From positions 1-56,450 of the IMG/VR virus record IMGVR_UViG_3300011115_000308: a DNA stretch of 56,450 nucleotides; one strand, given 5' to 3'. The position numbers were made by a program, and so were the translations under genes. How positions within the stretch are numbered: the first letter of the stretch is position 1; each line of letters starts with the position of its first letter. Under the pieces are notes generated by a model. The model was not told the origin of the DNA. It made no database searches and saw only the letters and a program-made list of their open reading frames with translations. Source of the stretch: a virus. Taxonomy: Duplodnaviria; Caudoviricetes. Of this stretch, positions 5,194 through 40,861 are shown piece by piece.

Positions 5194-5194
5194 T

Positions 5195-11740: not shown

Positions 11741-11744
11741 GTTG

Positions 11745-12092
11745 TTATCCTTCCGAGTACGATACGACAACGGTCATTCCGGTGCCGGGAACCACTACCA
11801 GTCCGTTGTCATATGGCATATTTATCACTGTAACACCAATAACGTTGTCAATCACAACCATGGCGCTGGTGAGCGAAGCAGAGGCGTTGCTATCATAGAC
11901 CGTGCCGTCCGTTGATCCAGCGACAATAACGCTGACAGACGCCAGTCGGCCCTGACCCGAAGACACCAAGGTTGTAGCTATCAACGTGTCAGACCTGCTG
12001 TTTCCCTGAACCTTCAGGTAAATTTGGGCAGCACTGTTGATCGCAACTGCGATGTTTTTGGCGGCTGTAAGAATGTCTGAGAGCGATGACAT
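11745..12092 (-). CDS. Small virion structural protein
   Basis: Coupled to the tail hub gene. Beta-rich C-terminus (GLVVVPGTGMTVVVSY). Confidence 0.55.
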   Translation of the reverse strand: MSSLSDILTAAKNIAVAINSAAQIYLKVQGNSRSDTLIATTLVSSGQGRLASVSVIVAGSTDGTVYDSNASASLTSAMVVIDNVIGVTVINMPYDNGLVVVPGTGMTVVVSYSEG

Positions 12093-14380: not shown

Positions 14381-15124
14381 TTAGCCTCGCGTTGGGCTGG
14401 CAACGGTTGCCGGAGCTTGGGATGACCAAGCCGCAGCATCAAACTTCTTACGGGCTTCCTCACCCACAGCCGATTGCAGCAACAGTTGATACTGGCTTTC
14501 GTAACTCATCGCCATCTGCGGGTCGTCACTTTCCTTGCCAAAATTGCGCTGGTAGGCCGAGATGTAAATCATCGACGCCATCACCAACAGGTCAGACAGG
14601 TACTGGCTGATGAAGGATGTTGGCACCGTTTCAGAAATTGGAGCGGGCCGGATCGTCCCCACCACCTCAACATAGTAATTGATGGCGGGTGTCGGACCCA
14701 CCAAAAATAGCGTTTCGTTGAACGGAACGAAATACTTAGGCTGGCCACGGTTGGCGGTCAGCCCAGAACCATAGACTGCATCCAAAAACTCTTTGGTTGT
14801 TGGCAGCAAGGGAACGCGGGTTCCTGTATCTGGGTCGGTAGGTGTGGTTGCATCCACGATCAGATTGATTTGTTCGCTGATTACAAACGACGTTCCATCG
14901 CCCAAATCCATTGAGAACGACAAGTTACGGTTTCCCGCCGTCAATTGGTATGAAGCGCCATGCAGGGCAACGGATGTGTTTATCAAGTCCAGATCGCGGC
15001 AAATGCGAAGGTTGGCGTAGTCAATCATCATTGGCAAGATCGCCAAGAAGTTTACGTCGTCTTCTGCAACGACCGCCATCTGGGCGATCTGGGTCTTATA
15101 GGTGGTGTACGTCAATCCTGCCAT
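14381..15124 (-). CDS. Head-to-tail adaptor / tail tubular protein A-like
   Basis: IDYANLRICRDL, GQPKYF and VGPTPAINYYVEV motifs. Position before the tail hub. Confidence 0.6.
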   Translation of the reverse strand: MAGLTYTTYKTQIAQMAVVAEDDVNFLAILPMMIDYANLRICRDLDLINTSVALHGASYQLTAGNRNLSFSMDLGDGTSFVISEQINLIVDATTPTDPDTGTRVPLLPTTKEFLDAVYGSGLTANRGQPKYFVPFNETLFLVGPTPAINYYVEVVGTIRPAPISETVPTSFISQYLSDLLVMASMIYISAYQRNFGKESDDPQMAMSYESQYQLLLQSAVGEEARKKFDAAAWSSQAPATVASPTRG

Positions 15125-17771: not shown

Positions 17772-18277
17772 CAGATCGGTCCTGTCTCTGGAACTGTCGT
17801 GTTATCATACGGCACATCTGCCACAGTTTCCAGTGGCGCGGTTTGCGCGGCTGGATCGGTGCCAGGCTGTTCGTTCAAGCTGCCATTGGCAAAACCAGTT
17901 TGCTGCGTGACACGGTTGTTGTCGTTCTCAGTAATACGGAAATCACCGCCAGGCACGGGAATGCCCGTCTGTGCGTTGACCGTGTTGCCCTGCGTCATGC
18001 GGTAATCCGTTTCCGCCTGAATGTAGTATTCGGGGCGGGCGTTCATAATTACGGGCGGATCGGCGGGCAGAACAATAGAGCGAAGTTGTTGCTGCGGGGT
18101 GTCCATGCAGTGATTGCACACCAAAATGCGCTTGTTGATCAAAGCAGCGCCAGCCCAGTCAAACTGCCACGACAGCGATGTGTGATTGTAAACCCCGCCA
18201 CACCTGTCGCACACAGCGGCTGCGGCTGGAGACTTTGCACTTATGCGGGCGCGGCCAAGTTTTGATGCGTATGACAT
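17771..18277 (-). CDS. Virion protein with N-terminal zinc ribbon
   Basis: CDRC...CNHC. Coupled to both neighbours. Confidence 0.6.
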   Translation of the reverse strand: MSYASKLGRARISAKSPAAAAVCDRCGGVYNHTSLSWQFDWAGAALINKRILVCNHCMDTPQQQLRSIVLPADPPVIMNARPEYYIQAETDYRMTQGNTVNAQTGIPVPGGDFRITENDNNRVTQQTGFANGSLNEQPGTDPAAQTAPLETVADVPYDNTTVPETGPI

Positions 18278-18957
18278 TATCTAAAATAACCCGAAAGCAT
18301 CGGGCTGATGTAGGTGTTGACCACTTCCACATCCTGCTCTGCGGCGATCTGGTAACTCTCGTCTGCCTGTCCCTTGAGCAGTTGCGCCATCTCAGGTGCC
18401 CAAATACGAGCCAGACGATAAGTCAGACCATCCGCAAAAGCTTCCAACCAGCGATAGGGAATTTCAACATTTTCGCCATTTTGGAGATTGGAATCTTGGA
18501 CCTGCCGAACGCGGTAATATTTCAGGATCGTGGCCGACGACCCGTCTGGCACGGGCCACAGGGTCAGAGTGGGTGACACCAATCGGTCAAACCAGTACGA
18601 TGTAGGGAAGCCCTGCTGGGTCTTGTTGGGGTAGGAGGCGTATTCTGTGCGCGAGATGGGCATGATCACGCGGTCAGGCCCGCTGGTTGTGGTGGTGTAG
18701 GCGTCCAGAACCATGACAGTGTTACCATCCACAGCGTAAGTGGCTTGGCCCTGTATCAGTGGCTCTGTGACCAGATCAACCGCCCATAAATTTACTCCCT
18801 GGTTGCTCCAACGCGACAGCATCATGTTCGTCGCCATGCGGGCGCTTTCCATATGCTCTTGCAGCACCGAGGTCGGACGGACCCCGATGTTCTGGTAGGC
18901 GTACAGGACAATTTCGCCCAGCGCCGGATTGAACGCATATGTTTCGCTGGTGGTCAT
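18277..18957 (-). CDS. Head completion/adaptor protein
   Basis: WSNQGVNLW, ISRTEYASYPNK, LWPVPD and EIPYRWLEAF motifs. Position in the structural operon. Confidence 0.6.
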   Translation of the reverse strand: MTTSETYAFNPALGEIVLYAYQNIGVRPTSVLQEHMESARMATNMMLSRWSNQGVNLWAVDLVTEPLIQGQATYAVDGNTVMVLDAYTTTTSGPDRVIMPISRTEYASYPNKTQQGFPTSYWFDRLVSPTLTLWPVPDGSSATILKYYRVRQVQDSNLQNGENVEIPYRWLEAFADGLTYRLARIWAPEMAQLLKGQADESYQIAAEQDVEVVNTYISPMLSGYFR

Positions 18958-20317: not shown

Positions 20318-21229
20318 TTACGAAGGTGTCGAACCGAAGACCGAACGCCAGTTATAGTAGGCGAACGAATAACGCTCATAACCCTTTACAAGCAGGTTAT
20401 CTGTAACAAAATCCACTTGCATATCCGTTTCAAACTTAACCCGTTCCATATAAGACAAACCATCAATGTTTGTCAAGAGGAACCAAGCGGATGCAGAGGT
20501 GAAGAAGTCGTTGACCATGTAGCCCTCTGGCAGACCGCCAGCGGTGGACATGATCGCGTTGACATCGTTGTCAGCCGTGCCTGGGCGCAGTTCCGTCTTC
20601 AGCAGGCGGATGGCTACGGGTTCCAGAGCGGCAGGAACGATCAGCTTACGGCCACGGGCGAAGACCTTCAGGCCAGCCTGATCGCGGAACTGGGTACGAA
20701 TAGCGATCATGCCGTTCAGCAGGGTCGATTCGTTCAGTTCCACTTGGATCGTGGGAGTGTTGGCAACCACACCGCCGTCAATGGGGTGGCTCAACGACAG
20801 CAGTGCCACACCGTCACCACCGATGGACGAGTTGTAGGTCGTCGCGGTGTTGAAGATGTTTGCCGCGTAGATTTCCTTGGTCTGGTTGAAGCTTTCAATC
20901 AGGCCGAGGTTTGACGGCTGGAACTGTGTTTTGTACAAGTTGTCGTCAATGGCCTTGCGGGTGATAGCGTACCCCAGACCGATTTCGACGTGTTCTTGGT
21001 TGTAGATGTAACGTTCGCCAGCGCCGTTATCGAAGGAGGTTTGGCCACCCTCGGTCTTCAGTTGTGCGAAGCCCAAGAAGCGCATCTCAGCGGTGCGTTC
21101 CAGCGCCATCTTCGAATTGTGCTTGGTGAACATCTTGTCGTACTGAGATGGGATCATCTCGTACTTGCCCTCAATCCCACGGAGGCCGGGGAGCAGAAGG
21201 TCTTTAATCGCAGAAAGATTAACAGCCAT
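20318..21229 (-). CDS. Major capsid protein (Mu gpT-like, HK97 fold)
   Basis: LLPGL, LGYAITRKAIDDNLY, GGDGVAL..HP, AWFLLT and YERYSF...WR..FG motifs. Strong SD and downstream terminator. Confidence 0.85.
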   Translation of the reverse strand: MAVNLSAIKDLLLPGLRGIEGKYEMIPSQYDKMFTKHNSKMALERTAEMRFLGFAQLKTEGGQTSFDNGAGERYIYNQEHVEIGLGYAITRKAIDDNLYKTQFQPSNLGLIESFNQTKEIYAANIFNTATTYNSSIGGDGVALLSLSHPIDGGVVANTPTIQVELNESTLLNGMIAIRTQFRDQAGLKVFARGRKLIVPAALEPVAIRLLKTELRPGTADNDVNAIMSTAGGLPEGYMVNDFFTSASAWFLLTNIDGLSYMERVKFETDMQVDFVTDNLLVKGYERYSFAYYNWRSVFGSTPS

Positions 21230-22596: not shown

Positions 22597-23106
22597 TCGG
22601 GGATCGGGATCGCCTCGTACTTCTTGCTGATCTTGACCAGTGGGTCGCCCTTGTTGGTGCGCTCAAACTCGCCATTTCTGGACGGCTGAGACAACTGAGC
22701 TTCCTTGTCACGCATCTGCATACGCGCCTTGCGAAGTTCCGCGTTGCGGGCATCTTGGGTGATTTCCAGCGGACGCTCCATCAGCACCATGCCCTTGCGG
22801 GTGATTTCCCCGCCCTTGTATCCCATTGGCATCAGTTCGGGGTGACGTGACGCGGGAACGCTTTCCCAGCCCTTACGGGCCAGCGCCACTTGGTGGGCGG
22901 GGTCTTCAGCGCCGAGGATCGTGCGGGTTTTCCATTCGTAGGACCATCCGTCTGGGATTATGCCCAGTTCAATGTAATATTCGTCGGTGCCAGTGTCGTT
23001 TAGATCAGCGGCGTGTCTATTTAGTTCCGCTGTCCGGCGGTCGGCGCGTTCGCGCGGGCTTTCCTCTGCGGGGGGGGGCGGGGCGCATTTCGGGGCGAAG
23101 TGTCAT
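22593..23106 (-). CDS. Head-morphogenesis-region protein with apparent frameshift in a 9-nt homopolymer
   Basis: The frame of 22593-22889 stays open and protein-like (EESPRERA...IPDGWSYEWK) up to 23102. The ATGs at 23106 and 23088 are one base out of frame across the run at 23070-23078. Confidence 0.6.
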
Positions 23107-23935
23107 TGAATTTTCCCTTCCTTTTTGAGGGCCACTTGTTCTTGGCATAATCCTCTGGTTTCATTCCCATCATCTCTGCCATTTCTCGTTCGGCGGCAGA
23201 AAGACGTACCACGTTGGAGCTTCTAGACTGATCCCCGCGATTAGAAGGCGCAGCCGCTGGTGCCGCATCTCGCCTTTGTACCACCTTTGCTGCGTACTGA
23301 TCATTGGTGTCGCTTTGAACGTTGCGCGACCCAATTTTCAGTGTGTCCTCAATTGCCGAGAAGTAATCATCGCTGTCAGTGGGGATACCATCTGCAACCG
23401 CAAGGTTGTGGGCGGCAAGCATTTTGGCATTCAGGCGCGCATCACGCACAAATTCAGGGTGACGGCGCACCCAGTCTGCACTGCGCGGCGACAATTGCGA
23501 TGCAAACGCCTCCACGGGGTCAGCCGGAGGTAGTTGCGGCTCCGGTTCGCGCGGTGCGCTTTCCATTGCCTGCCGACCGTTGTTTAACTGAAGCAATTTG
23601 GCTTCGTGGGACGACATTTCCCGTTGAATCTTGGTCGCGCGGTCAAAATCACCATTCTGCAAGGCGTAAGTGTGCGCTTGGCTAAGGAGTTCAATGTCCC
23701 GATTGACCGTGTCGATGGCATTTACCACCAGTTGGAAGTTTGTCTCGTCCACTTCGTTGCGTGAGCGGTGAACAACAACGGCAGCCTCATGCACTTGGCG
23801 TTCGGCGTGTATTCTTGCCGACCGTTCCGCGTCCAGTTGTCGCTTGAGGTCGGTAATATACGCGGGTTCGTCATCTTGAGACGCTTCCGTTTCCTCTACG
23901 GGCAGTACAAGAGTGATGTCTTCTTCGTTTTCCAT
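23021..23935 (-). CDS. Capsid scaffolding protein (true stop possibly 23103)
   Basis: Acidic N-terminus, coiled coil, VVRLSAAEREMAEMMGMKPEDYAKNK. The adjacent frame continues VALKKEGKIQ-stop. Confidence 0.65.
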   Translation of the reverse strand: MENEEDITLVLPVEETEASQDDEPAYITDLKRQLDAERSARIHAERQVHEAAVVVHRSRNEVDETNFQLVVNAIDTVNRDIELLSQAHTYALQNGDFDRATKIQREMSSHEAKLLQLNNGRQAMESAPREPEPQLPPADPVEAFASQLSPRSADWVRRHPEFVRDARLNAKMLAAHNLAVADGIPTDSDDYFSAIEDTLKIGSRNVQSDTNDQYAAKVVQRRDAAPAAAPSNRGDQSRSSNVVRLSAAEREMAEMMGMKPEDYAKNKWPSKRKGKFNDTSPRNAPRPPPQRKARANAPTAGQRN

Positions 23936-23946
23936 CTTTTTTCCCT

Positions 23947-24336
23947 TCAGTACACGGAATCGGGGTCTTGGACCCGACCCTTGATGTAAATGTCGTCAAA
24001 GATACGGCACAGGACGTTATTCACGGTGATTGACCACCCTTCGGACGGGCGAAAGATCAGCCAATCATGTTCTTTGAACTCCATGCTTTCAAACCATGTG
24101 CCGTCTTGTTCAAACGCCTTGGGGCCGCGCTTGACCAGAAGACCTACCTTTGATTGGTACTTGTCTTCGTCAACGTGGCTATCCGTCAGGATCAAGCCGC
24201 TTTTTGTTTTAGTTGGGCGTAAATAAGTGGCTAAAAGCACTTGATTGTGGAACAGTTCTATATTAGAAATGTCTCCAAGTGCATCTAGGATGGTTTGTTT
24301 TGGGTCTTGTTCGTGCAACATGGGCATATGCGGCAT
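23947..24336 (-). CDS. groES: Phage co-chaperonin GroES (Cpn10-like)
   Basis: Mobile loop KTKSGLILT, VGLLVKRGP.AF and terminal DD..I.G.V. Start revised to ATG 24336. Confidence 0.8.
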   Translation of the reverse strand: MPHMPMLHEQDPKQTILDALGDISNIELFHNQVLLATYLRPTKTKSGLILTDSHVDEDKYQSKVGLLVKRGPKAFEQDGTWFESMEFKEHDWLIFRPSEGWSITVNNVLCRIFDDIYIKGRVQDPDSVY

Positions 24337-24346
24337 GGTTAATCCT

Positions 24347-24553
24347 TCAGAGGGTTTTGTTGACGACTGTCTGTGCATCGTCGCACAGTTCGATGACCAT
24401 ATCCAACGCGGCGATCCTACCGACCGCCTCGCGGTATTGTTCTATGGTCGTGATTGAATGCCCCCCAACAATGTTGGTGGCAATGTGATGTCGTTCTTCG
24501 CTTATCAGCCTACGAAGCTCGCGTTCGAAAACGCTGCTTGCCGTCTGGATCAT
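24347..24553 (-). CDS. Small helical hypothetical protein
   Basis: EQYREAVGRIAALD amphipathic helix. Upstream of groES. Confidence 0.55.
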   Translation of the reverse strand: MIQTASSVFERELRRLISEERHHIATNIVGGHSITTIEQYREAVGRIAALDMVIELCDDAQTVVNKTL

Positions 24554-24633: not shown

Positions 24634-26859
24634 TTATGCGTTCTTACCATACTTATCAACTTTTTCAAGGCGGCCCTTACCGGAGCCAGCCCCAAACTGC
24701 ATTTTGGGGTAAACCTTACCACCAGACTTCCGTCCCATCATAGGCTCAGGGCCTCCTGCGGGGGGCAGGCCAGCGGCACCAGCCATTGCGTCACCAAGGC
24801 CAGGGGGAACGCCACCACCCATTGGAGGGGGCGGAGGTGCCATTGGGGGCGGACCACCAACGGGTGGCATCATCGGCGGCATTTGCGATTCAATGCCGTT
24901 CTCTGGCTTGTTGGCATTATGCGGCATGACGTTGATGCTGATGTTTGTGGTGCCCTTGGTACGGCCACCAGTTGCACGGCCCATGCGGCCACCGCCACTC
25001 TTGTAGCCAGCCGAACCGCCGCAAGCTTTGCACATGCAGCCCTTCTCATGCGCCTCTTCAACCTTGCCCCCTGCCTTAAAACCGCCAGCCTTTTTAGCAT
25101 TGCTGGCAGCTAGGGCTTGCCCCGTAAACCCTGGTTTAGACGTAGGGGTTCCCATAGGCTGTGCCTGTTGGGGCATACCCATGGGGCGCGCTTGTTGGGG
25201 CATACCCTTATTGTACATCACGCCCGGGATCATTGGAGCGCCGCCCGTCATGTCTGTTTTGCCGCCCATTGGGCCTTGGCCGCCAAACATACCTTTTCGA
25301 CCACCACCTTGAGGACCACCCATTGGCATTGGTTGACCGCCAAACATGCCTCGTTGGCCACCGCCCATTGGGGCGTCCATTGGACCTTGACCGCCAGACA
25401 TACCTTGTTGGACACGTTGTTGGGCACGTTGTTGGGCTTGTTGGATACGTTGTAAATCCGGCATCTGCTGACCGCCACCCATGCCTTGTTGCGGTAGACC
25501 CATGCCTTGTTGGGCACGTTGGTCTTGTTGGGCTAGTTGCCGCGCCATATCTTGCTGCATTTGTTGTAAAAATTGCGGTGACGGTTGTTGGCCGCCACTC
25601 ATTTGATTTGTGTTCGTCTGCGTTTGCATAGGCATCTGCTGACCGCCACCCATTTGCGGTTGTGCATAAAGGCCGCGTATTGTGTCCATCGGCATTTGCC
25701 CAAATGCACCACCACCTGCCTTGCCGATGCGGCCACCCTTGTTCAGGTTCTTCATCGACTGTTGCTTGTCGTGCTTGTCGTCAGCCTTGGAAGCTTCCCA
25801 CTCGGCCATCGTCATCTTGCGCTTGTCAGCAAGCTTCTTGTCTTGCATCTGGTCCTTGGCGGAACCCTCAAACTTCTCAGCCTTGCCACCTTTTTTGTAG
25901 CCGCTGTAGTTACTATTCCCAGTTGAGCTATCGCGGTCAAGCCAACTACCTGCGCCATTTGGGGCAGGATGATGACCCATGCGCGGGGCTTTTGGAATAG
26001 GTGCAGGACCAACCCGACCTTTTAGGCGCTTGTCCCCAGCAGCGGCGGCTGCATCTAAAGCCGCACTTGCTTTTTCTTTAGCAATCATGTCCAAAATGCG
26101 GCCCTGATCTGCGGTTTGTATTAGATTGTGGATAGCCTTGTGCTTGGCAAAGTCCTTGGCAGCAATTTTATCCTGTGTTGCACTTTTAGCGTTATTAAGC
26201 TGTTTTTGGTCAAACCCACGCGCATTTGCGGAACGCTTCATCTGAAAAACGTTCATGTTTCCCTCAATGCCGTCGGTCGTTACCCCACCTTTTTTCAAGC
26301 CAGCGGGACGCTTTGGCGGGCGCATTTGGAAGTCAGCTTCAGACGGAACGCCGTCTTGCTCAGAATCGCCAACGCCTTCATAAATTTCAAGAGAAGACGG
26401 GCGCTTCTTGGGGCGCATTGATTTTTTTTCTGCATCCTCTTCGGCAGCCAAATCGGGGAACATCTTGCGCCACTTGGCGTGATCTTCTTCCTTCATTGCC
26501 ATTTGGCCGCTGTCAGCACCACCGCCACCAGCCTTCTTGACCATGCCGCCCTTTTTGAAGCCACCAACGTGCTTGACGCCATCGCGCTCTTCGTTGGCAG
26601 TCTTTTGGTCGGTGTTGGCCAGACCAATCTTGCCGCCATTCATGCGCGGGGTGCGGGATAGGTTGCTCTTGGCCGTTACGCCTTCAACCGTACCGCCAGC
26701 CTTAAACGCGCGGCGGGAGATCGGGCGCATACCCGTCTTGGCATCTGCGTTTAGCTTTTCTGCGGGAGTGAAAGTGGAGCTGTCCACTTTGCCCCCAGAG
26801 CTTTCAATCATGCTCTGGGCCTTCTTGTTTTTTGCTGCGCGCAGCGCCTTGAAATCCAT
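24634..26859 (-). CDS. Low-complexity basic putative internal head protein with many xGG motifs
   Basis: 741 aa, rich in K/G/M/Q/P. About ten K-x-G-G-type motifs. In the head operon. Confidence 0.6.
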
Positions 26860-26876
26860 GGTGTGATCCTCTGAGG

Positions 26877-29225
26877 TTATCCGGCGTCCCGGTCGTGACC
26901 AAGAGCATACAACGAAGTGAGGGATAATGCACGTTCGATGTTTCCGGCCCTGCCGCCACGCTTGTGGCCAATTTTCCCGATGTTCTGTTCGGCTAAAGCT
27001 GTACTGTCAAGCATACCTTGGTTAATTTGGCCCCATGGCTTTTGCTCCTCATACATTTTGCGATCAGTAGAACGGCCTAGTGGCTCTTCGCTCAATGAGT
27101 GAACTGGCAAGTTTCCCTTGATCTCTTTTCCAGTCAGGGCAGTTGCGTAATCTGAGAAAGCCGCGCGCCGTGGGATTAGCGGAACATCACCATAGTATTC
27201 GCCCTTGGTATCCGCTTGATAAGTGGAGTGCTTGCCCAAAGCGCCAGACAAGGCCCCCTTCATCAACTGATCAGGGTCCAGCGTCACAAGGCGGTGACCA
27301 ACCATGGCGTTGTTAGCATCAAGCAATTCAGGCTCAGTAATCGCGGCTCTTGTTACCCCAACTTGAGGGAACCCACGAACCCGCCATTTGGCAGTATCCA
27401 TCATTCTGGTAAAGCCAGCACGATGCGTTCCGGCAAAACCTGTTTCTGGGCGCATGAAATCAGAAGCAGCCTTGGAGTTCATAATGCCAGGCCAGTTTTC
27501 CATAGCCTTGGCAAATGCAGCACGTTTCCCTTTGGTTGGGGCATGTTCCCCGCGCTTCAATGCTTCGTCAAATGCCTGCGCGTCTTTGGGATCAATGTTT
27601 GCCGATTTGATTTGGGCCAGAAGCGCATCAACCATGTTGTGGGACGACGAAACAGATTGCGGACCCATAGGTTGAAATGCCCCAACCAGTGGTCCCTTTT
27701 CAGCAGCTTTGCCAATCATCTTGGCAAGGCTTTTGGCATGGGCCGGAGCGTTTGCCCATATCCTGCCTTGGTTTGGCTCAAGCATGTAGTCAGCACCAGC
27801 GTGGAGGTCCACTGGCCATTCAAGCTTCTTGTTTTGAATGTGCGTCAGGCGTCCAAGCCTAGAACGATCACCACCAAGTCCTATCAGGGTGCCGCCAGCC
27901 ATAGGGGTGAGGGCATCTTCCCAACTCATTTTCTTCCGTGGCACCGTGGTAACGCCAGGGATTGGCGAAATAGCAGACTGAACATCTCGCGGCGCAACGT
28001 CCTGATTGATTTTGTAATACCCCCCACGAACTGGCTTGTTGGTTGATACATCAACTTTATTGGAGTTCAGGATGGCAATCTGACGTGCGCGTTCCATCGG
28101 GTCGTTGATCTTCCAAATTTCACTGGGATCAACAATCCGCGTTTTGCGGCTTTCCATTGCCTGAAGGTACTTTTGGGCCTGCTCATCGCTGAACTTTGCG
28201 TCAACGCCAATGACCTTCAAAAGCTGTGCGCCAAGCGGGTGGTTCTTTAAGTTTTCAATGACTTTCCCAAAGTTTTCGTCACCACCTAGCTTCCCCCCAA
28301 ACTGCTTTCCAATCCGACCGCCATCTTTGGCGTTCCGCATGGCATCAATCACGTCACTGTGGGTTGTTTTTTCGTTTCCGGCCTTGTCCCATATGGCATG
28401 GTGGGTCAAATGCTGGCGAAATGGCTCCAAAGCGGGGTCCATCTTGGGGTTTAACGCAGTTTGGCGGGCCGCAAGGCGATCAACGGCCTCAAAACCAGCG
28501 CGCCGCATTGGTGACTTGGCTGCCGATGTCGGCATACCCGTTTGCAGCACCACTTGGCGCGCATCCAGCGTCGGCTGATCGCCACGGCCAACCATTGATG
28601 CGACAAATCCAGCCTTAGCAGTGCCAATACCGCGCAAATTCTTGCCAAAAGCACGCCATTCCGCAACTGGGCTATCATCTGACACGGCACGTTTCACCAT
28701 ATCCGACACGGTCTTGTGCTTGTCGTGCAAATTTAAAGCCGCCCACGGCAAGGCATCGGCTTCGGCCTGTAATCCAAATGGTTTCATTACCTTTTGGGCG
28801 TGATCTACGGCTTCCTGATCAACTTTTCCAACTTCGGCGGAGTCCAAATACCGCTGTCCCATTGGGGATTTCAACCATTCGGCCATTGCGCCTTCGGGCC
28901 GAATGCTTCCAGTGACACTTGGGGGCAAGTAAAGACCTGACGCGCGAAGCTTATCTGCGGTCTGGGAGCGCCGCTGAATGCTAGATCGCGTAATGGCGTA
29001 AGCTTTAATCAGGTCGCGCGGCTCAAGCCCCTTGGTGGCAGCCTTGCGCGCCATGTCATCCATGTAAGCGCCAAAGTCTTCAACGTGGCTTGGTATTTCT
29101 TTCAGCCCTTCAAGGTCTTCTCTGACATCTTTTAACGGACGCCAATTAAAGCCCTGCATCTTCTTGCTGGAGGGGTCTTGGTACTGCGACACCAGATCAA
29201 GTGCGCGCTTTACAGTATCCGCCAT
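26877..29225 (-). CDS. Two-domain putative head cargo protein: HhH-GPD glycosylase-like domain plus unknown domain
   Basis: [28 protein letters not shown]...HHAIWD. Domains separated by AKDGGRI/KQFGGKL. Confidence 0.55.
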
Positions 29226-29226
29226 A

Positions 29227-31176
29227 TCACTTCCCCTTGGATTTCAACGCCACCGTAGCACCTTTGCCGTCCTTGGTGAAGCGGCGTGTTAGGGCAAGGG
29301 CGTTGTCAACCGAACCACCTTTGCGTTTAACCAGACGCGGCTTGCCGGAAATGTGCTGGTATTTGTCAGGATTGCCCAGCAAAAGTTCAACTGGGTACGG
29401 TCTTGTGTAGGCGGGCTGACCAACTGGTTCCATGTCAACTACAGGGTAATGATCCTGATAGACAAGCTTTGGCGGTTCCTTGCTGCCCCAACCGCTGACG
29501 TGCAACATGCGGTGGCCGACCACTTCCATCGGCGTGGAATTTGGCGTTGGCAAATAGCGATATTTGTCTCCAAACGGCAGGGCGTCAAATACGCCATCGG
29601 CCTTGGCAGCCATATAAGCTTGACGGGACGCTTCGTGGCGGTCGGACATTTTGGTGAGCGTGTCTTGGACATGCTGTGGCGGCGCGTCCGACATTGCTGC
29701 ATTCATTGTACGACGAAAGCCTAGATTGACCACGTTGTCGCCCACTTCGCCACCTTCTTGTTTGCTAACCATGCCACCATACTCGTACTTGTCCGTTACC
29801 TGCACGGGGTCGTGGTGGAACATGACGTAGTTGTGCGTGGGGTCGCCGTCAGTGTCGTTGCGCGATCCAGCATCAAGGTAGCGGATGCCCTTTAGACCTT
29901 GGGACTGAAGATAATCAGAAGCTTGCTTGCCGTTTTCGCCATAATTAGAAAGAGCTTGATGAAGATCACGACCAGTAGCTTCCACGCCAACGTCACGACC
30001 TTCACGCCACGCTTGCAAGACGCCACGGGTGGGGCCAATAGCTTTGTTGATGTCAGCTTCTCTGGCGATGCGCTGAATGTTTGGATGTTGCTCCGATAGC
30101 GGCTTGTCCCAGTCCAGCAGTTCTTCGGGTTTAACGTTCAGCTTAACTTTGTACATGTGGCCGCCTGGGCGGAAATCACCGCTGGAAAACTTTTTGGATA
30201 CCGCCTCAACTAATTCTGGCGTCATATTTGGGCTTGTGTGGGTTGCGCCGTTCTTAAACTTACTGAGCCACTTGACAGCACCTTCCGGCGTATTGTCGCT
30301 GAATACCAGTGCCATTTGACCTGCGCGCTTCTCCAAATCAGGGGTGCCTTCTGGATGAATAAGCGTGTCAGACAACGAATTTCGGTAGCCTTTTGCCACC
30401 GCCTCATTCCCAGCAAAATACAGCCCATGCCCATAGGATTGGTTGCCCTCGCCCGTGCCAAGCTTGCTGATGTCAAACTGGTCAAAATCATGCGGGCTGC
30501 CGTGGTAGGCGGTGATGCCATCCTCGTCATCATTGTCAACCGTACCACCACCAGCCTTGGTGATGTCGGGGTCGCTGGATGCCATAGCCGAAACTTTGTC
30601 TGGATGCATGGGGCCATCGGCTTCTTCTGCACCATTCCAATAGCGAACTTCCGCCTTCACGCTTGGAACGCCCATTGCGTGGGCAACAGCCACCCGTGTG
30701 TTGCCCTCAAGGATGAAAGGCTTGCCGCGATGGTTTACCGCCACCACAACCTTATTGCCCTTCTGGTGGGGATCAAAACCCTCTTTGCTGACCGACGACA
30801 TCAGATCGTCAAACCGTGGCTCGCCCGCAACCCTTTTTTCATTGTTAAGCGGTTCAATGGATTTCAAGACGTGGGTCGGCAGGAACAGGTCTGATTTTCC
30901 ACCCATCCACCCCGTTATCGCCCCAGCAATCCCCTTCATTCGGGGGTACTCAAATGCGTGACTTTGCTTGCTTTCAAGCCAATCCCCGCCAGGGTTGTCC
31001 TTTACAAAATCAACCTTGCCACCATCAGCATGGACCTGACGGGGGACGTTGGGCAGGTATTTGGACGGGGCGATCTGGCCACCAGCGCGGTTCACAGCAG
31101 TGCGGGCGCGGGCTTTGTCAAGCATACCAGCCGCTGTCAGCTTGGCTGACCGGATCGCCTTGTCCTTGTCCATCAC
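29227..31176 (-). CDS. Polyvalent putative head cargo protein: ParB/Srx-like, ADP-ribosyltransferase-like and unknown domains
   Basis: FILEGNTRVAVAHAMG (ParB-N like). AYHGSPHDF...GHGLYFA...YKVKL...NYVMF (ART fold of polyvalent proteins). Confidence 0.65.
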   Translation of the reverse strand: MMDKDKAIRSAKLTAAGMLDKARARTAVNRAGGQIAPSKYLPNVPRQVHADGGKVDFVKDNPGGDWLESKQSHAFEYPRMKGIAGAITGWMGGKSDLFLPTHVLKSIEPLNNEKRVAGEPRFDDLMSSVSKEGFDPHQKGNKVVVAVNHRGKPFILEGNTRVAVAHAMGVPSVKAEVRYWNGAEEADGPMHPDKVSAMASSDPDITKAGGGTVDNDDEDGITAYHGSPHDFDQFDISKLGTGEGNQSYGHGLYFAGNEAVAKGYRNSLSDTLIHPEGTPDLEKRAGQMALVFSDNTPEGAVKWLSKFKNGATHTSPNMTPELVEAVSKKFSSGDFRPGGHMYKVKLNVKPEELLDWDKPLSEQHPNIQRIAREADINKAIGPTRGVLQAWREGRDVGVEATGRDLHQALSNYGENGKQASDYLQSQGLKGIRYLDAGSRNDTDGDPTHNYVMFHHDPVQVTDKYEYGGMVSKQEGGEVGDNVVNLGFRRTMNAAMSDAPPQHVQDTLTKMSDRHEASRQAYMAAKADGVFDALPFGDKYRYLPTPNSTPMEVVGHRMLHVSGWGSKEPPKLVYQDHYPVVDMEPVGQPAYTRPYPVELLLGNPDKYQHISGKPRLVKRKGGSVDNALALTRRFTKDGKGATVALKSKGK

Positions 31177-33644
31177 TTCTTACCTTTTGGCATACGCGCA
31201 ATTGCTTGTTGGCTTTGAACCTGCATGGCAAGCTTGATCGAATCTTGAACCTGCTGACGCCGCGACAGGTCATCCTCGTGGCGCATCCGCGTCCGGTCTG
31301 CCATTTCCTGACGGTCCAAACGCATTTGCTCCAACGCCATGTCGTGCTGCATACGCGCTTGGTCGTCCATTTGTTCGCGCTGCATCTGGGCTTGCTCAAG
31401 CGCCATCTCGTGCTGCATCCGCGCCTGATCGTTCATGTCTTCGCGTTGCAGGCGCATCTGTTCCATTTGCATGTCAGCATCACGCGCCAGATCGCGGTTC
31501 TGATCGTTCATCTGATCGCGCTGGGCAGAGATTTCCATCTGCTTGGCTTTGTTCTGCTCTGCCATCATTTTGATTTGGAGTTCCTGCGGGTTCGGCCCAG
31601 AAACCCCAGTCGCAGGTGCCGCCGCAGGCTGTTGTGCTTTGATCATGGCGGCCTGTCCGCGCATGGTGTCAGCGTCAGCTTTCTGCTTGTTGATTTGCAA
31701 TTCTGCCTTGGCTTGCTCTTCTGCCGGATCAGGCTGGTTCATTTGATCGTCGGGCAGCATGAACTGCTCAGGGTTGGACCAGCCAATGGCGCGCAGGGCT
31801 GCCTTATCAACGGCAACCGTGTCGTACATTTGCGGGTTTGCAGCCACAAGTTGTTTCAGGGCCATGATCTTCATAATGCGCTGGCTGTGCGAAGACGTGT
31901 TGGGATCGGCCTGTGGGACCAGTTCCACATCGGTCAGGGCCTGCAAGAACAACTGCTCGTTCCATGCAATGGTGGGCTTGCGGTTACGCTCCCAAAAGCT
32001 TTCGGGATGCTCACGGAAGCACTGCACCAACAGCGTAAACTCTTCGGCCTGCGAACTGTGCATCCGTTTGTGAACCGCGTTCAGCACCTTGGTGGCCTGT
32101 TCAATCATGGCCAGCGTGGTGCCAACGGGGGCGTCAGAACGGCCTTCGCCCACCTGCAACTCCGAAGTGCCCCCCACGCGCATTCCCGTCTCGCTCATGT
32201 CTTGCACTAGCGACATCAGCGCGCCGGACGGCTCCTTGTAGGGCAACGGCATGATCGCATCGCTGATCTTCTGGCCCCCAGTCTTGACCTGTGCGCCGCC
32301 CCCTGGCGGGACGCGGAAGATGTTGGTGTTCTGGCGCGCGCCGACATCGCTGATCAGGAACCCAGGGAAGTTGGCGTACATGCCAGCGTCCAGCAACTCG
32401 CGCCACGCGGCAGTAATCGCATTGGTGGTGTTGCCAAGGATGTGCAGCAAGCCAATGTCGTAGAAACCAAGCCCAGGCACAAACGTGTATTTGACGAACG
32501 TGGTGCGCGCTTCGGGCAGCATCCCCGCGTCCGGCTGGTCGTAATTGCGGGTGATGGACAAGATTTCACGCGACGACACGTCAATGGTCACGCGGTACGG
32601 GATTTCCAGTCCAGTGATCTTGCCCTTGAACTTGTGTTCAAACTTCTTGATGTCCAATTCGCAATAGATTTCGTAAATCTCGCGGTCACGGTCATCGGGG
32701 TTGGCGGACGTGGTGGTGACGCCCTGCTGTGACGCCTTGGCCTCGGCGGCAGCGTCCGGCGTAACCTGCATTGGCGTGGACAAGTCAATGTCGCGGTACA
32801 CCCCAAGGATTTGCAGGCGCTTGACCGTGGACGGCTTGAGCATCACGCGGTGCGTAATCCGCATAGCCGTGGACAGGTCAGTCGCGCTGTTGTTGACAAT
32901 CAAGTTGTCGGCATCCACGCTGTCGCTGGCAGGGCGGTTGCGGAGCGGGCAGAAGAACACTTTTTTGAACGACGTGCCGCCAAAGCCCAACAGCAGCAAC
33001 ATCCTATCGGTGTCGGGGTAGTATTCGCGGGCCGTGCTGGTCAGGAAGTGGTTCATGTCCTTCTCAAACGCATTGGCAATGTTGTCGCGCTCAATGGTTG
33101 TACCATTGGCATCGTCCCTGATCTTGACGGGGCCATCGGTGGGCAGCAACTCTGACCTTGCATTGGCCTGAAACCGCAACACGGCCTCCTGCAAGAGCGG
33201 GTGCCGAACCTTGGACATGCCCTCAATCGGTGCGCCATCGCCCGTGCCCTGCAACCCTGGCACTTCAATCTTGAGGCCCAAAAGCTTAATGCCCTGCGCG
33301 CGGTCGTCGATCCACTCGCTGCGGCTTTCGAGGTCGTCAGAAACACCACGCAGGAGGTCTTCCGCGATCCGCGCCAATTCGGTTTTTTCAATCTTGTCAG
33401 ACAGGTTGTCAAACCACCCTTCGGGCTGGCCCTCAACGTCTTCGGCATCCTCAATGGGCTTGCCGTCCAGTGACAACGTGATGGACCCATCGCCGTGGTC
33501 GATCTTTAGAATCGCGCCGTTCTCGTCCATCTCTGGGATGTCAACCTGATCGTCGCCGTCCTGTTCAATCGTTACATCCATGTCCCCCATTTCGTCGGGC
33601 TGGCTGTCGCCAAGGATGCGGATGTTGGGGTTCAAGCCAGACAT
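31173..33644 (-). CDS. Portal protein (P22-like with long C-terminal coiled coil)
   Basis: HPLLQEAVLRFQA...GPVK, PGLGFY.IGL, LPYKEPS, PVGTTLA and DPN motifs. Q/M-rich tail. Confidence 0.85.
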   Translation of the reverse strand: MSGLNPNIRILGDSQPDEMGDMDVTIEQDGDDQVDIPEMDENGAILKIDHGDGSITLSLDGKPIEDAEDVEGQPEGWFDNLSDKIEKTELARIAEDLLRGVSDDLESRSEWIDDRAQGIKLLGLKIEVPGLQGTGDGAPIEGMSKVRHPLLQEAVLRFQANARSELLPTDGPVKIRDDANGTTIERDNIANAFEKDMNHFLTSTAREYYPDTDRMLLLLGFGGTSFKKVFFCPLRNRPASDSVDADNLIVNNSATDLSTAMRITHRVMLKPSTVKRLQILGVYRDIDLSTPMQVTPDAAAEAKASQQGVTTTSANPDDRDREIYEIYCELDIKKFEHKFKGKITGLEIPYRVTIDVSSREILSITRNYDQPDAGMLPEARTTFVKYTFVPGLGFYDIGLLHILGNTTNAITAAWRELLDAGMYANFPGFLISDVGARQNTNIFRVPPGGGAQVKTGGQKISDAIMPLPYKEPSGALMSLVQDMSETGMRVGGTSELQVGEGRSDAPVGTTLAMIEQATKVLNAVHKRMHSSQAEEFTLLVQCFREHPESFWERNRKPTIAWNEQLFLQALTDVELVPQADPNTSSHSQRIMKIMALKQLVAANPQMYDTVAVDKAALRAIGWSNPEQFMLPDDQMNQPDPAEEQAKAELQINKQKADADTMRGQAAMIKAQQPAAAPATGVSGPNPQELQIKMMAEQNKAKQMEISAQRDQMNDQNRDLARDADMQMEQMRLQREDMNDQARMQHEMALEQAQMQREQMDDQARMQHDMALEQMRLDRQEMADRTRMRHEDDLSRRQQVQDSIKLAMQVQSQQAIARMPKGKK

Positions 33645-36205: not shown

Positions 36206-37843
36206 TCAGGCGTTGTACAAAGGCTCGTTGTGGTTGCCGTGGAAGACCTTGCTGTCTTCGATCTCCGCCATCCGCTCCGGTGCCCGTGTGAGCATACCAA
36301 CATCCCGCAAGTGCTTCAACCCCATGCTCACTGTATCGACAAGATCATCGTGCGCCCCACGAGGAAAGGACGAGGTCTGCCGGATAACCATTTCGGCCCA
36401 GTCTTTATTGGGCGCAAAGATCATTTGCTCACTGAACAGGTGCTGGATGGAGTACAGCCGCGCCACCTTGTCGAGCGTCTTGGGGTCGTACATCTGGACC
36501 CCGAACTTGGAGCTGTTAAACACCCGCCGCAGTTCTTGCGCCACACTGTGCCCCGCTGCCTTGTTTTCGATCAGCAGCAGGTCGACCTTCATCTTGACGC
36601 AAAGCTCTTCCACCTTCTTGACAAGGTTGCCGATCTCCAAGCGGTCCTGCCATGCGTACATCATCATCACCTTGGCGGTCGCCCCCAAGGCCTCGGACTG
36701 GCTACTGGTGGCGCTCTCAATGGGCCGCCCGTACCGATCCACCATGCGCGTTGACGCCTGATCCGCTGACGCGCTGAACACACCCCAGATCGTCATGGCA
36801 CTGGGGTCGTTCTCCGACTTGGTGGTGTAGGCGGTGTCGAGGGCGGCCACGATGTATTCGATGGGCGGGTATTCCTTCTTGTCCCATAGCTGCCACCACT
36901 GGTCCTTGATGATGCCGCCCCCGCGTGGCTCTGGGCTTTGCGCGTACTGGCCTGCGGTTGCGTATTGCCCAAGGGCAAATTCGTCGCGCTCAACGATGTG
37001 CAACGGGAAGCGGTCAGGGAACAGCAACTCCCCGTCGATCTCTCGCGCATCGGTGTAGCCCAGCGCCGTGACGCATTGGCGGTTTGGGTCGTAGCGCATG
37101 GGCAGCATGATGTGGTCGTAGCCCATGTTGTTTTCGAGGATCACGCCGGACACATCACGCTCGTGCAGTCGCTGCATCACCACCACGATGGCCGACCGAT
37201 CAGGGTTGTTCAGGCGGCTGGTGACGGCTTCCTTGAACAAGGTAACCACACTCTCGCGCTTGGCATCGCTGTTGGCGTCGTCCACAGAGTGCGGGTCGTC
37301 AATGATCACCCTGTCGCCCCTGTAGCCCGTGATGCCCGTGAACGCGCAAGCCTGCCGCGACCCCGTGGCCGTGGTTTCGAACTTGGCCTTGGCGTTCTGA
37401 TCGCCCGTGATCGTGACGCGGTCGCCCCAGTGGCCCTGATACCATTCGTCGGACACCAAGCGCCGCATCCGCAGGCTGTCGCGGATCGCAAGCTCAAGGC
37501 TGTGCGACGCGCAGACGTAGCGCATGTTGGGCATGTTGCGCGGCCCCCACTCCCAAGCAGGCCAGAACACCCCGATCAGCAGCGACTTCATCGTACCAGG
37601 GGGGACGTTGACAAGCAGGCGGTTGTAGTACGTTTCATCGTCGTTCAGGACGCCGTCAGTGATCGCCTCAAGGTGGGCGCAGATGTAGTCGATATGCCAG
37701 CCGTGGACGTAGGCCTGCCCGGGTTCGATAACGTGCCACGCCGCCTTCACAAACGATGCCAGCGACATCTCGCACTTGCGCTTTTCGATGGCCCGCAGCG
37801 TGGCTGCTATGTCAATGCCGCGCGGCAGGGTGATCACGCCCAT
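36206..37843 (-). CDS. terL: Terminase large subunit
   Basis: Walker A-like NVPPGTMKS, Walker B VIIDDPH, VMQRLHERD, RNase H-like LDTAY...IENKAAG...HDDLVD. Start revised to ATG 37843. Confidence 0.93.
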   Translation of the reverse strand: MGVITLPRGIDIAATLRAIEKRKCEMSLASFVKAAWHVIEPGQAYVHGWHIDYICAHLEAITDGVLNDDETYYNRLLVNVPPGTMKSLLIGVFWPAWEWGPRNMPNMRYVCASHSLELAIRDSLRMRRLVSDEWYQGHWGDRVTITGDQNAKAKFETTATGSRQACAFTGITGYRGDRVIIDDPHSVDDANSDAKRESVVTLFKEAVTSRLNNPDRSAIVVVMQRLHERDVSGVILENNMGYDHIMLPMRYDPNRQCVTALGYTDAREIDGELLFPDRFPLHIVERDEFALGQYATAGQYAQSPEPRGGGIIKDQWWQLWDKKEYPPIEYIVAALDTAYTTKSENDPSAMTIWGVFSASADQASTRMVDRYGRPIESATSSQSEALGATAKVMMMYAWQDRLEIGNLVKKVEELCVKMKVDLLLIENKAAGHSVAQELRRVFNSSKFGVQMYDPKTLDKVARLYSIQHLFSEQMIFAPNKDWAEMVIRQTSSFPRGAHDDLVDTVSMGLKHLRDVGMLTRAPERMAEIEDSKVFHGNHNEPLYNA

Positions 37844-38433
37844 AGCAACTCCACCAGCCCGTTGTCGTTGAACACCCCGCAGCACAGGCGCTTGGGGCCT
37901 GCATCAAGGCACACGCGCTGCTTGCCTTGGAAGACGTTTGGCGTGTGGCCATGCACCACCATCTTGCCACGGTAGCCGCTGTCGTAGCCTTCGGGATAAC
38001 GAAACATTTGCGTGAACGCCTCCGGCTGGTCGATCAGGTCGTAGGCCGGATGTACGCCAGCGTGTACATACACCCGCGCCGCGTCCTCGTGGTAGCGGGG
38101 CAGGCCGCGAAACCAGTCCATGTCGTGCTGCAATGCGGCATGGTCCAGATCGCCCGACAGCGGGTGCTTGTAAGACAGCAGCGTCGAGGCCCCGCTATTG
38201 TCCAGCCACATGCGCGGGTCGGGAAACGCCACCATGTCCTCATGGTTGCCACGCAGGCACACGGTGTTAGGCAGCGCCCGCACCAGCGCCACCACCTCGC
38301 GGCTCTGGCTGCCACGGTCCACATAGTCGCCCAGAAACACCAGCCGCGCGCCAGCGGGTATCTGCGCCAACAGGGCCTCAAGCTCTGTCAGCCGACCGTG
38401 GATGTCGGTCATCACATAGGTCTTGTCAGGCAC
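37834..38433 (-). CDS. Metallophosphoesterase (Ser/Thr protein phosphatase, lambda NinI/PphA-like)
   Basis: DIHG, GDYVDRG, GNHE, HAG and HGHT motifs. Start revised to GTG 38433. Confidence 0.9.
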   Translation of the reverse strand: MPDKTYVMTDIHGRLTELEALLAQIPAGARLVFLGDYVDRGSQSREVVALVRALPNTVCLRGNHEDMVAFPDPRMWLDNSGASTLLSYKHPLSGDLDHAALQHDMDWFRGLPRYHEDAARVYVHAGVHPAYDLIDQPEAFTQMFRYPEGYDSGYRGKMVVHGHTPNVFQGKQRVCLDAGPKRLCCGVFNDNGLVELLWA

Positions 38434-38869
38434 CGCCCAGCGCCTTTTCCAGCACGTCAAGCTCGTCGCTCGACAAGTGGTCAATGGTCAGCGTGTGGCT
38501 AACCTGCACCGTGCCAGTGGTAGCGATCTCGACCTTGTCGCCGTATTTCTTGGGCTTGCGCTTGCCTGCCGACCACTTGTACGCATCAATGGCCACACGG
38601 GCCGCGTCAGGGGCGATCTTGCCGTCCCGCACAGCCTGCGCCACTTCCGCAACGCGGTCAGCATCAAGGTCGGCGCTGTCGTCTCGCGCGCGTGTGTATT
38701 CTTCCAGAAAATTCGGGAATTCCCGCGCCCAACGCATCACGGTGCTGTATCTGGGCAGTTCTTTATTTTCTTCAAGGAACGGCACAAGACCACTGCCGCT
38801 AGCAATGGCCTCACAAATCCGATCAGCAATGTCTTGATCGAACGGTATTTTGGGTCTGCCTAAAGTCAT
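38426..38869 (-). CDS. terS: Terminase small subunit (Sf6 gp1-like)
   Basis: GRP...ICE.IASG...TVMRW...YTRAR...KW...PKKYGDK. Confidence 0.85.
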   Translation of the reverse strand: MTLGRPKIPFDQDIADRICEAIASGSGLVPFLEENKELPRYSTVMRWAREFPNFLEEYTRARDDSADLDADRVAEVAQAVRDGKIAPDAARVAIDAYKWSAGKRKPKKYGDKVEIATTGTVQVSHTLTIDHLSSDELDVLEKALGGA

Positions 38870-40240: not shown

Positions 40241-40861
40241 TCAAACCTCCCCGACCATATCGCCGCCGCAATCGCCGCAGATCAGGCGCGACCCCATCTT
40301 AGCCCACGCCTTATTGCCGCAGCCACACTCATGCTTGACCTTCGACAGGTCTTTTTTCTTGCCATCGGCCTTGCCACGGGGCTGGGTGAAGTAGGGGATG
40401 TCGAAATTTGGCCCAAGACCCTCGAAAGCCACATCAAACGGCCCGCCTTCGTCGATTATGTGCGTAACCTTGCGGCCCGTCATCTTGCCTGTGCCATCGG
40501 TCGGGGTCAGGCCTACGCGCAGCATCAGGTTGGCCCATTCCATGTTGTGGTGGCCACCCTTGGACGGCTTGCCGTACTCTTGCTGTTCGACGTGGGTCAT
40601 CTCGTGAACCAGCGTGGACAGCACGGCTTGGATGGTGCGGTCCATGCTCTGCGGGTTCAGGGCAACCTCGTGAACCGTGCCCAGATCGGCATCTTTATTT
40701 GCAAACTGGTCGGCCCAGAAATAGCCGTGGGCACCACGCTTGCGGGTCAGGGTGAACAGCACGGGCGGCAGGCGGCTGTCGAACAGGGCCTTGTTGAAGT
40801 GATCATAGGCGCGCTCAAGGCCCGTGTACGTCTCGGCGGTGGGGGTCTGATAATTGGTCAT
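40241..40861 (-). CDS. SprT-like zinc metalloprotease
   Basis: FNKALF...LP, TLVHEMTH, HNMEW...VG and C-terminal CxC...CxxC. Confidence 0.85.
   Translation of the reverse strand: MTNYQTPTAETYTGLERAYDHFNKALFDSRLPPVLFTLTRKRGAHGYFWADQFANKDADLGTVHEVALNPQSMDRTIQAVLSTLVHEMTHVEQQEYGKPSKGGHHNMEWANLMLRVGLTPTDGTGKMTGRKVTHIIDEGGPFDVAFEGLGPNFDIPYFTQPRGKADGKKKDLSKVKHECGCGNKAWAKMGSRLICGDCGGDMVGEV

Follow-up and report, generated by a model that had tools for sequence, protein, structure and literature searches.

Gly-Gly junctions mark module boundaries in mosaic proteins encoded between portal and scaffold in a clade of uncultured phages

The stretch of DNA analysed here (the window) is the whole of a 56,450-bp IMG/VR virus record, IMGVR_UViG_3300011115_000308, which is estimated to be about 95% complete and carries all of its late genes on the minus strand. 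Between the portal gene and a scaffold-like gene lie three genes, numbered 1, 2 and 3, whose products of 649, 782 and 741 amino acids (p649, p782 and p741) each have invariant N- and C-terminal ends, shared within each gene, on either side of a variable middle. A short element built on a Gly-Gly pair (GG) recurs in these proteins at the borders between modules. The features of the locus are collected in Table 1. From gene position and by analogy, the products of genes 1 to 3 are probably cargo proteins carried inside the virions of an uncultured podovirus-like clade, and would be packaged and injected.

The layout of p649 runs from an N-terminal handle through a GG, a ParB/sulfiredoxin (Srx)-like module, a GGG, an ART-PolyVal (ADP-ribosyltransferase, ART) module, a GG-octapeptide-GG, a module without assigned function and a last GG to a C-terminal tail. 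Its motifs are HADGGKV (aa 52), KAGGGTV (aa 209), YEYGGMV (aa 467), KQEGGEV (aa 475) and KRKGGSV (aa 620). In an AlphaFold2 (AF2) model made from a 23-row alignment, with a mean predicted local distance difference test score (pLDDT) of 48, the ART module alone is folded, and this folded part (about aa 221-465) is bracketed by the GGG at aa 209-211 and the GG at aa 467-468. The chain carries at least two unrelated effector domains, the ParB/Srx-like and ART-PolyVal domains, besides a module without assigned function.

A first-pass annotation of the same DNA had named several of these domains. Its ART-like label holds: the match of p649 to Pfam PF18760 (E 3.8e-5) is weak and lies under the curated cut-off, but homologous modules in relatives match strongly. 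Its ParB-like label agrees with the fold level only: the AF2 model of this module has a pLDDT of 56, and its top Foldseek matches are almost all to sulfiredoxin, ParB, KorB and Noc (E 0.012-0.3), but no match was found in Pfam or among PDB sequences, so that aa 56-207 can be called ParB/Srx-like only weakly. The labels "HhH-like", "channel" and "muramidase half" were confirmed by none of the searches against Pfam, PHROGs and PDB sequences. Those searches (Pfam to E = 1) returned no usable family for p782, for either half of the 1442-aa virion protein p1442, or for the ParB-like and unassigned modules of p649, and an ESM Atlas search with p782 gave only a lead below 0.9.

Motif frequency was assessed with the strict pattern [KRHFY][AKQE].GG.[VIL] in 71 non-overlapping open reading frames (ORFs) of the window, each compared with 500 within-protein shuffles that preserve composition and are therefore Gly-matched. 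The strict motif occurs 13 times, always within six late proteins in which 0.04-0.11 occurrences are expected per protein, and the looser form GG-x-[VI] occurs 21 times in the same six. These results agree with the first-pass annotation, which had counted more than 20 loose matches in six late proteins and had proposed the comparison with shuffled controls; every motif instance that it quoted was found in its place. As it had also reported, the strict motif is lacking in the portal, capsid and terminase proteins, and it is absent from all 65 remaining ORFs. Enrichment is individually convincing for p649 (4 observed, 0.07 expected), p741 (4 and 0.09) and p1442 (2 and 0.11) only; the single occurrences in p782 (0.06 expected, p = 0.058), p710 (0.04, p = 0.038) and p403 (0.08, p = 0.084) stand below these. 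The Gly content is 17% in p741 and 13% in p1442.

Outside p649 the motifs are distributed in different ways. In p782 they are AKDGGRI (aa 302) and KQFGGKL (aa 310), paired within aa 302-315, and HKRGGRA (aa 757). The low-complexity protein p741 contains eight GG-x-[VI] motifs where 1.1 are expected, as well as a conserved H-x3-C-x-C-x2-C-GG knuckle at about aa 604-616, which holds the only cysteines of the protein and is present in nine of ten gene 3 proteins inspected, the tenth being cut by a contig end. The motifs of p1442 are VKTGGRV (aa 537), YAKGGGI (aa 546) and KAGGGAV (aa 608), and p403 has a single strict motif, RAHGGKV, at aa 51. Both p741 and p782 contain a double element, GG-R-[VI]-...-GGG-...-P, which also stands in a conserved region of p1442 and of its homologues.

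Relatives of the locus were collected by a portal search, which gave 25 loci with portals 79-94% identical. The gene downstream of the portal in these loci encodes proteins ranging from 649 to 1921 aa, in which the same junction peptides recur (...PNDPDITKA-x-GG, ...KHMNKA-x-GG, ...DKYEYGG, ...DFAFS-x-GG and ...VPRQVHA-x-GG). In 16 proteins of close relatives, 59 of the 75 well-supported BLAST breakpoints fall no more than 5 aa from a GG, where 13.5% would be expected. The 55-aa N-terminal handle was then turned into a profile (alignment A1, 22 invariant columns), and a search of 1.84 billion representatives with it found 128 proteins of 59-1911 aa, with the handle either N-terminal or 110-530 aa inside. 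Enrichment and breakpoints were determined on 109 of them, namely those with a length of 400 aa or more. GG-x-[VIM] occurs 643 times in this set against 133 expected (4.8-fold), and 465 of 685 breakpoint clusters lie no more than 5 aa from a GG, against 93 expected. A breakpoint lies within 8 aa of 443 of 619 GG-x-[VIM] elements (72%); the same holds for 183 of 719 other GGs and for 11% of positions taken at random. Since the representatives are related sequences, the counts over them are not independent events; the effect is still very large.

When the representatives were cut at their junctions, 437 segments with a median length of 193 aa were obtained, which fall into 62 families and form 103 different architectures in the 109 proteins. 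The commonest module family has 20 different right neighbours and 22 different left neighbours. The first-pass annotation had placed the motif at domain boundaries and had suggested that domains be compared among related phages; the homology breakpoints, together with the bracketing of the ART module in the AF2 model, place GG at module boundaries, and close relatives exchange modules but keep the motifs.

The genomic setting is constant. All 59 handle-bearing loci agree in portal type (68-94% identity among loci that cover the portal) and in gene order. In the window, and likewise in 47 of 49 new loci, gene 1 directly follows the portal; the other two loci end at that point. Every one of the 18 new loci that extend far enough has a GroES-like gene after gene 3. 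The first-pass reading of multi-module cargo proteins with terminal "tags", encoded between portal and scaffold, is supported, and the tags are conserved. Its sole GenBank relative is a metagenomic genome, MW202675.1, with the same gene order as the window; among 50,697 phage records the N-terminal handle matches this genome only, and no cultured relative was found. In one 90,582-bp record (G006, loci L045 and L046) the cargo locus is present twice, inverted, and the record is flagged for inverted terminal repeats; the doubling probably arose when a genome of about 45 kb was wrongly assembled head to head.

The ends of the gene 1 protein are as constant as its middle is variable. It always starts with M-x-D-K-A-x-R-[AS]-A-x-L-T-A, and extra modules can be inserted between this start helix and the ...RAGGQIAPSKYLP-x-VPR-x-VHA-x-GG core. 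The end ...ALALTRRFTKDG...KGK is present in 61 of the 109 representatives, the remainder including contig-truncated and split genes. In four cases (L042, L064, L065 and MW202675) a GG junction is the exact point at which gene 1 is divided into two genes, of which the first retains the N-terminal handle and the second the C-terminal tail, and gene 1 of L049 is probably split in the same way. Several cargo-protein ends share a helix pattern resembling [KR]-A-L-x-L-T. Prediction of a complex between the portal and the N-terminal handle gave a score of 0.01 (mark 0.32), which speaks neither for nor against binding.

We compared the junctions residue by residue. The flank before the GG follows the upstream module family and the flank after it follows the downstream family, so that a module-specific tail peptide meets a head peptide in the joined form ...K-A-x-G-G followed by x-V-.... 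Common to all junctions are only the GG and V, I or M at position +2, these three residues occupying +2 in 50% of 198 distinct contexts; A or S is preferred at -3 and K at -4, and K or R stands at +1 in 22%. Between modules there is often an eight-residue spacer, x-[VI]-x-[KR]-x-x-G-G, whose last two residues are a second GG. Where a specific anchor permits counting, the junction GG is conserved in 110 of 114, 59 of 61 and 25 of 25 cases (96-100%) while the flanking modules fall to about 40% identity; the GG inside the handle is kept in 79 of 98.

At the DNA level the Gly codons of the GG, of which all four are used, and the Val codons at +2 vary synonymously. The proportion of identical residues encoded by different codons is 0.24-0.33 in handles and tails, close to the 0.35 of the portal core. 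Since the codons vary freely and the divergence of the handles is near that of the portal, selection, as judged from these alignments, maintains the junction peptide and not its DNA, and a pure recombination footprint is unlikely. The exception is the C-terminal tail of gene 2 (26877-26954, minus strand; the last 25 codons of the gene), with a synonymous divergence of 0.12, far below the portal. A nucleic-acid signal for gene 3 that overlaps the tail, or a recent gene conversion, may explain this low value.

In order to place the cargo proteins, 84 handle-bearing proteins were searched against Pfam. ART-PolyVal was matched in 75, Peptidase_M15_3 in 22, GNAT and L5_gp82-like in 8 each, VanY in 6, PBECR5 in 4 and InPase in 2; peptidoglycan peptidases of the M15/VanY type and cytoplasm-type enzymes occur on one chain in L012, L015 and L018. 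By domain content the cargo proteins are phage-type polyvalent proteins, a known kind (Iyer 2017, PMC5512222), so that the "new system" of the first-pass annotation is not new as to kind. They share with that class, as presented in the main text of Iyer 2017, several effector domains per chain, strong mosaicism, the signature domains ART-PolyVal, PBECR5, InPase, GNAT and DD-peptidase, and a late-gene position adjoining the portal (PMC5512222). Polyvalent proteins were proposed there to be packaged and injected, and the zincin MPTase, the commonest but not obligatory hub (about 36% of the class), to be their processing enzyme. In the clade studied here no MPTase domain was found in the 84 gene 1 proteins at E <= 0.001, and no MuF is among the matched families. 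Unlike the class as described there, the clade has its own N-terminal handle and C-terminal tail and a strict GG-x-[V/I] at nearly every boundary; the words "linker" and "glycine" are absent from the main text of that paper. Subscription journals and supplements aside, we found no published description of GG junctions in phage cargo proteins. What appears to be new is thus the repeated, near-invariant GG-x-[V/I] between all modules, together with fixed N- and C-terminal handles, in a portal-linked three-gene cassette.

The GG grammar is not general to ART-bearing internal virion proteins. Such proteins of two other phage lineages have no enrichment of GG-x-[VIM] (Bp-AMP1 gp40, 3 against 1.9 expected; vir555_54, 2 against 1.4), which makes the grammar clade-specific. 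The cultured Sulfitobacter phage phiGT1 (L036) encodes a single-module ART protein (4918-6081) in the same portal-to-scaffold position, with a GG 8 aa ahead of the ART core and a GGAME stretch that resembles the clade handle; it may represent a simple ancestral state.

Double glycines mark unit boundaries in other systems. In adenovirus and African swine fever virus (ASFV), GG-X separates the units of virion-internal polyproteins, and the cognate cysteine protease is virus-encoded. GG lies at the boundaries of units here too, if the modules are assumed to be mature units, but in contrast no cognate protease was found among the 39 window proteins scanned. The T4 prohead protease removes its targeting signal at a different site, and here no prohead protease was found. 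For the double-glycine leader system no C39 family was detected, and A or S at -3 with K at -4 does not fit the leader consensus. T4 internal proteins and Alt, which carry a capsid targeting sequence, and P1 Dar are packaged and injected anti-host enzymes, ADP-ribosyltransferase included (summarised in PMC5512222); like the short terminal peptides that direct packaging in T4, the conserved ends found here may act as handles.

Conserved elements next to exchangeable domains are also known from toxins. MuF-anchored polymorphic toxins of temperate phages (Jamet 2017, PMC5576092) and SPP1 gp7 likewise combine variable toxin modules with a conserved N-terminal region that is encoded immediately downstream of the portal gene, whereas the clade has no MuF, several modules per chain in place of one C-terminal toxin, and conserved elements at both ends. 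Pre-toxin junction motifs such as PT-VENN precede exchangeable toxin modules, mark cassette recombination and were proposed to be a processing site (Zhang 2012, PMC3482391). The likeness is a short conserved element ahead of each exchangeable module; PT-VENN toxins, however, are secreted bacterial proteins with one junction and an immunity gene, while the clade has a junction between each module of a predicted virion protein and the next, and no immunity genes were seen. The podovirus polyvalent protein phi24B gp47 (2811 aa) is present in virions by proteomics and was proposed to be an ejection protein; it differs in its domains (LPD, MuF-C), and no GG grammar is reported in the available text of that preprint (bioRxiv 10.64898/2026.04.10.717836).

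The first-pass annotation had further proposed that the chain is cut at GG, and no result supports this. Among 39 window proteins, Pfam revealed no endopeptidase family except a SprT-like zincin, and no prohead protease, MPTase, C39 or clan-CE protease was found either in these or in the gene 1 proteins of 84 relatives. Protease families were also lacking in the 23 of 24 core genes covered by Pfam. The capsid protein is short, lacks a long N-terminal extension and has a separate scaffold; with the GroES-like gene, these features make the head module look like a protease-free assembly line. The SprT-like protein has an intact HEMTH and a C-terminal Cys-rich CGCG...CGDCG, and is encoded 1.4 kb upstream of the small terminase gene. 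Its gene is present in all five close relatives and, among the records searched, in 7 of 9 clade relatives. Of the four relatives at least 90% complete, two, G006 and G007 (completeness estimated at 100% and 97%), lack the gene yet keep GG junctions, and the more distant phiGT1 lacks it too. Since the only zincin is dispensable in relatives, it was rejected as an obligate junction protease. The idea that M15/VanY modules are self-processing Gly-Gly peptidases was likewise rejected, because M15 is present in only 22 of 84 proteins and absent from p649. A search for hidden MPTase modules through HExxH gave its clearest match in the N-terminal module of the L019 type, shared by L023 and L026; L018 and gene 2 of MW202675 each gave a single HExxH or HExxxH match, and no family match accompanied any of these.

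We favour, at somewhat less than an even chance, an uncleaved joint or recognition element over GG-directed processing as the function of the junction. Modules of about 190 aa each (ADP-ribosyltransferase, ParB/Srx-like, M15/VanY peptidoglycan peptidase, GNAT, PBECR5 RNase, pyrophosphatase and many unknowns) are exchanged by recombination exactly at the GGs, where genes split too. The chain would be packaged whole by its terminal handles and would leave through the tail as beads on a string, with no phage protease cutting it, and GG-x-V would be an obligatory tight turn, hinge or docking element that insulates folding units and so keeps any module combination viable. The presence of the motif in the conserved, non-shuffled stretch of p1442 and in the dense arrays of p741 counts for such an uncut joint. 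Several points weigh against it. The strict double Gly and the convergent hydrophobic residue at +2 across unrelated modules exceed the need of a floppy linker and fit a protease site equally well, and octapeptide spacers with GG on both sides recall the spacer peptides of viral polyproteins. AF2 modelled neither junction of the ART module with confidence (pLDDT below 50 around aa 200-220 and 465-498 of p649). The packaging and ejection on which the scheme depends are themselves proposed by analogy, and a protease of cryptic kind, encoded by an unannotated core gene or by the host, is conceivable. Finally, a cell-wall peptidase (M15_3, 22 of 84) and cytoplasm-type enzymes (ART-PolyVal, 75 of 84), if on one chain, are the case in which Iyer 2017 (PMC5512222) argues for processing.

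Processing at GG, in the head or after injection, by an unrecognised phage or host protease would free handles, spacer octapeptides and effectors. It would account for the near-invariant junction GG and the convergent V/I at +2, for an N-terminal handle that ends in GG and a C-terminal tail that begins right after GG in p649 and many relatives, for spacers flanked by GG on both sides and for natural gene fission at identical points, and it is also favoured by the co-occurrence of peptidoglycan peptidases and cytoplasm-type enzymes on the chains of L015, L018 and L012. Further points on its side are the absence from all 84 proteins of MPTase, the presumed processor of other polyvalent proteins (PMC5512222), and the intact SprT-like zincin that the window and all five close relatives encode upstream of their terminase genes. 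Against it, no GG-type protease family turned up anywhere in the scans, the head module looks protease-free, and the SprT-like gene is absent from two nearly complete relatives that keep their junctions. The C-terminal tail is not always preceded by GG (not in gene 1 of L015, nor in gene 2 of L009, L019 and MW202675), and cuts would shred p741 and hit the conserved part of p1442. Residues K and R, common at +1, would moreover become N-termini, where they are destabilising in many bacteria. With no protease found, yet with a strict GG, a constrained +2 residue, GG-flanked spacers, GG-bordered handles and mixed enzymes, we hold the uncut joint to be the likelier and cleavage to be doubtful. Less probable again is a recombination footprint, that is, exchange at short GGNGGN microhomology or conserved linker DNA with a merely harmless peptide. 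Crossovers exactly at GG, extreme mosaicism despite portals 80-94% identical and the low synonymous divergence of the gene 2 tail (0.12 against 0.35) would fit it, but with all four Gly codons in use the shared DNA amounts to only a few bases, the GG persists while modules diverge, the hydrophobic +2 residue recurs in unrelated module heads, and the synonymous divergence of the handles is near-normal. We give slightly less weight still to chaperonin recruitment, in which T-K-[AS]-x-G-G-x-V would mimic the GroES mobile loop and host GroEL would fold each module of about 20 kDa, or refold it after ejection. The GroES-like core gene after the cargo genes, in the window and all 18 far-reaching new loci, and the median module length speak for it, as does a resemblance of the junction to the GroES loop motif, G-G-I-V-L; however, the junction has a single hydrophobic residue after the GG and charged flanks, and the loop of the phage's own GroES-like protein, K-S-G-L-I-L, has one G. 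That the motif arises by chance from Gly-rich composition, as the Gly content of p741 and p1442 and the lack of individual significance for p782, p710 and p403 might suggest, is refuted, since composition-preserving shuffles give 4.8-fold fewer motifs and the motif tracks breakpoints.

Polyvalent proteins are thought to be a first strike of phages against host defences. The clade gives a clean rule for their construction, with fixed end handles and near-invariant GG joins, by which about 60 module families yield more than 100 natural architectures. Taken from nature, this rule could serve in designing foreign proteins to be packed into phage heads, and it makes two questions testable, namely whether the units are cut apart and what the handles bind. 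Should GG-x-[V/I] after all be the cleavage site of an unrecognised GG-specific protease, a cryptic core virion fold or a host enzyme, which we think unlikely, a new phage protease specificity must exist, and each virion would deliver a programmable set of free effectors, along with the handles and spacer peptides set free by cutting. Tailed phages would thereby provide their first example of a virion polyprotein processed at Gly-Gly, a counterpart of core maturation in adenovirus and ASFV, and the cassette would be a natural plug-and-play one for phage-delivered proteins.

Table 1. Late genes and junction features of the window, with positions on the 56,450-bp record (aa, amino acids).
Feature	Position	Strand	Remarks
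SprT-like zincin	40241-40861	-	HEMTH and Cys-rich C-terminal stretch
Small terminase	38426-38869	-	
Large terminase	36206-37885	-	
Portal, SU10 type	31173-33644	-	immediately upstream of gene 1; no strict motif
p649 (gene 1), polyvalent cargo protein	29227-31176	-	
p649 N-terminal handle, aa 1-55	31012-31176	-	ends ...VPRQVHADGG; 22 columns invariant in 15 relatives
p649 ParB/sulfiredoxin-like module, aa 56-207	30556-31011	-	ends ...DPDITKA ahead of GGG; weak, fold level
p649 junction GGG, aa 209-211	30544-30552	-	ParB-like/ART boundary
p649 ART-PolyVal module, aa 221-465	29782-30516	-	only confidently folded part of AF2 model
p649 double junction GG-MVSKQE-GG, aa 467-476	29749-29778	-	GG and spacer ending in second GG
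p649 module without assigned function, aa 477-619	29320-29748	-	common to L006 and L008
p649 C-terminal tail after GG, aa 620-649	29230-29319	-	...ALALTRRFTKDG...KGK; kept in gene 1 of relatives
p782 (gene 2), cargo protein	26877-29225	-	conserved N helix and C tail, variable middle
p741 (gene 3), G/Q/M/P-rich low-complexity protein	24634-26859	-	conserved ends
Small core protein, 71 aa	24347-24562	-	
GroES-like co-chaperonin	23947-24378	-	Pfam Cpn10, E 3.5e-6
Scaffold-like protein	23021-23935	-	named from position and relatives' annotation; no family match
Small core protein, 98 aa	22593-22889	-	
341-aa protein			listed between scaffold-like gene and major capsid protein
Major capsid protein	20318-21229	-	
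Tail genes		-	include two SU10-adaptor paralogues and the 1442-aa protein (5195-9523)
SU10-type adaptor paralogues (Pfam PF24175)	14381-15124 and 18277-18957	-	
p403, 403-aa Gly-rich core late protein	10559-11770	-	one strict motif
p1442, 1442-aa core virion protein	5195-9523	-	
p1442 GG cluster, aa 537-611	7691-7915	-	GG-R-V-x-x-Y-A-K-GGG-I-A-G-P as in cargo junctions; kept in homologues
p710, 710-aa core virion protein	3142-5274	-	
p710 GG, aa 660-661 (...GRKSGGRV...)	3292-3297	-	then C-terminal helix

Some further features of the late region can be described. The GroES-like gene is a core gene between the cargo genes and the scaffold, for which a role in capsid folding and one in cargo folding are both conceivable; the small core proteins of 71 and 98 aa flank the GroES-like/scaffold pair, and the 98-aa protein has a single GG-x-I motif. 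The two SU10-type adaptor paralogues are reminiscent of podoviruses with two adaptor rings. The C-terminal part of the portal (31173-31650, minus strand; about the last 130 aa) is a long, repetitive helical tail rich in Q, M, R, D and E, which may reach into the head as a barrel-like extension. The small terminase gene is separated from the large one by a gene for a calcineurin-like metallophosphoesterase (37834-38484, minus strand), which among six relatives only G001 and G002 have.

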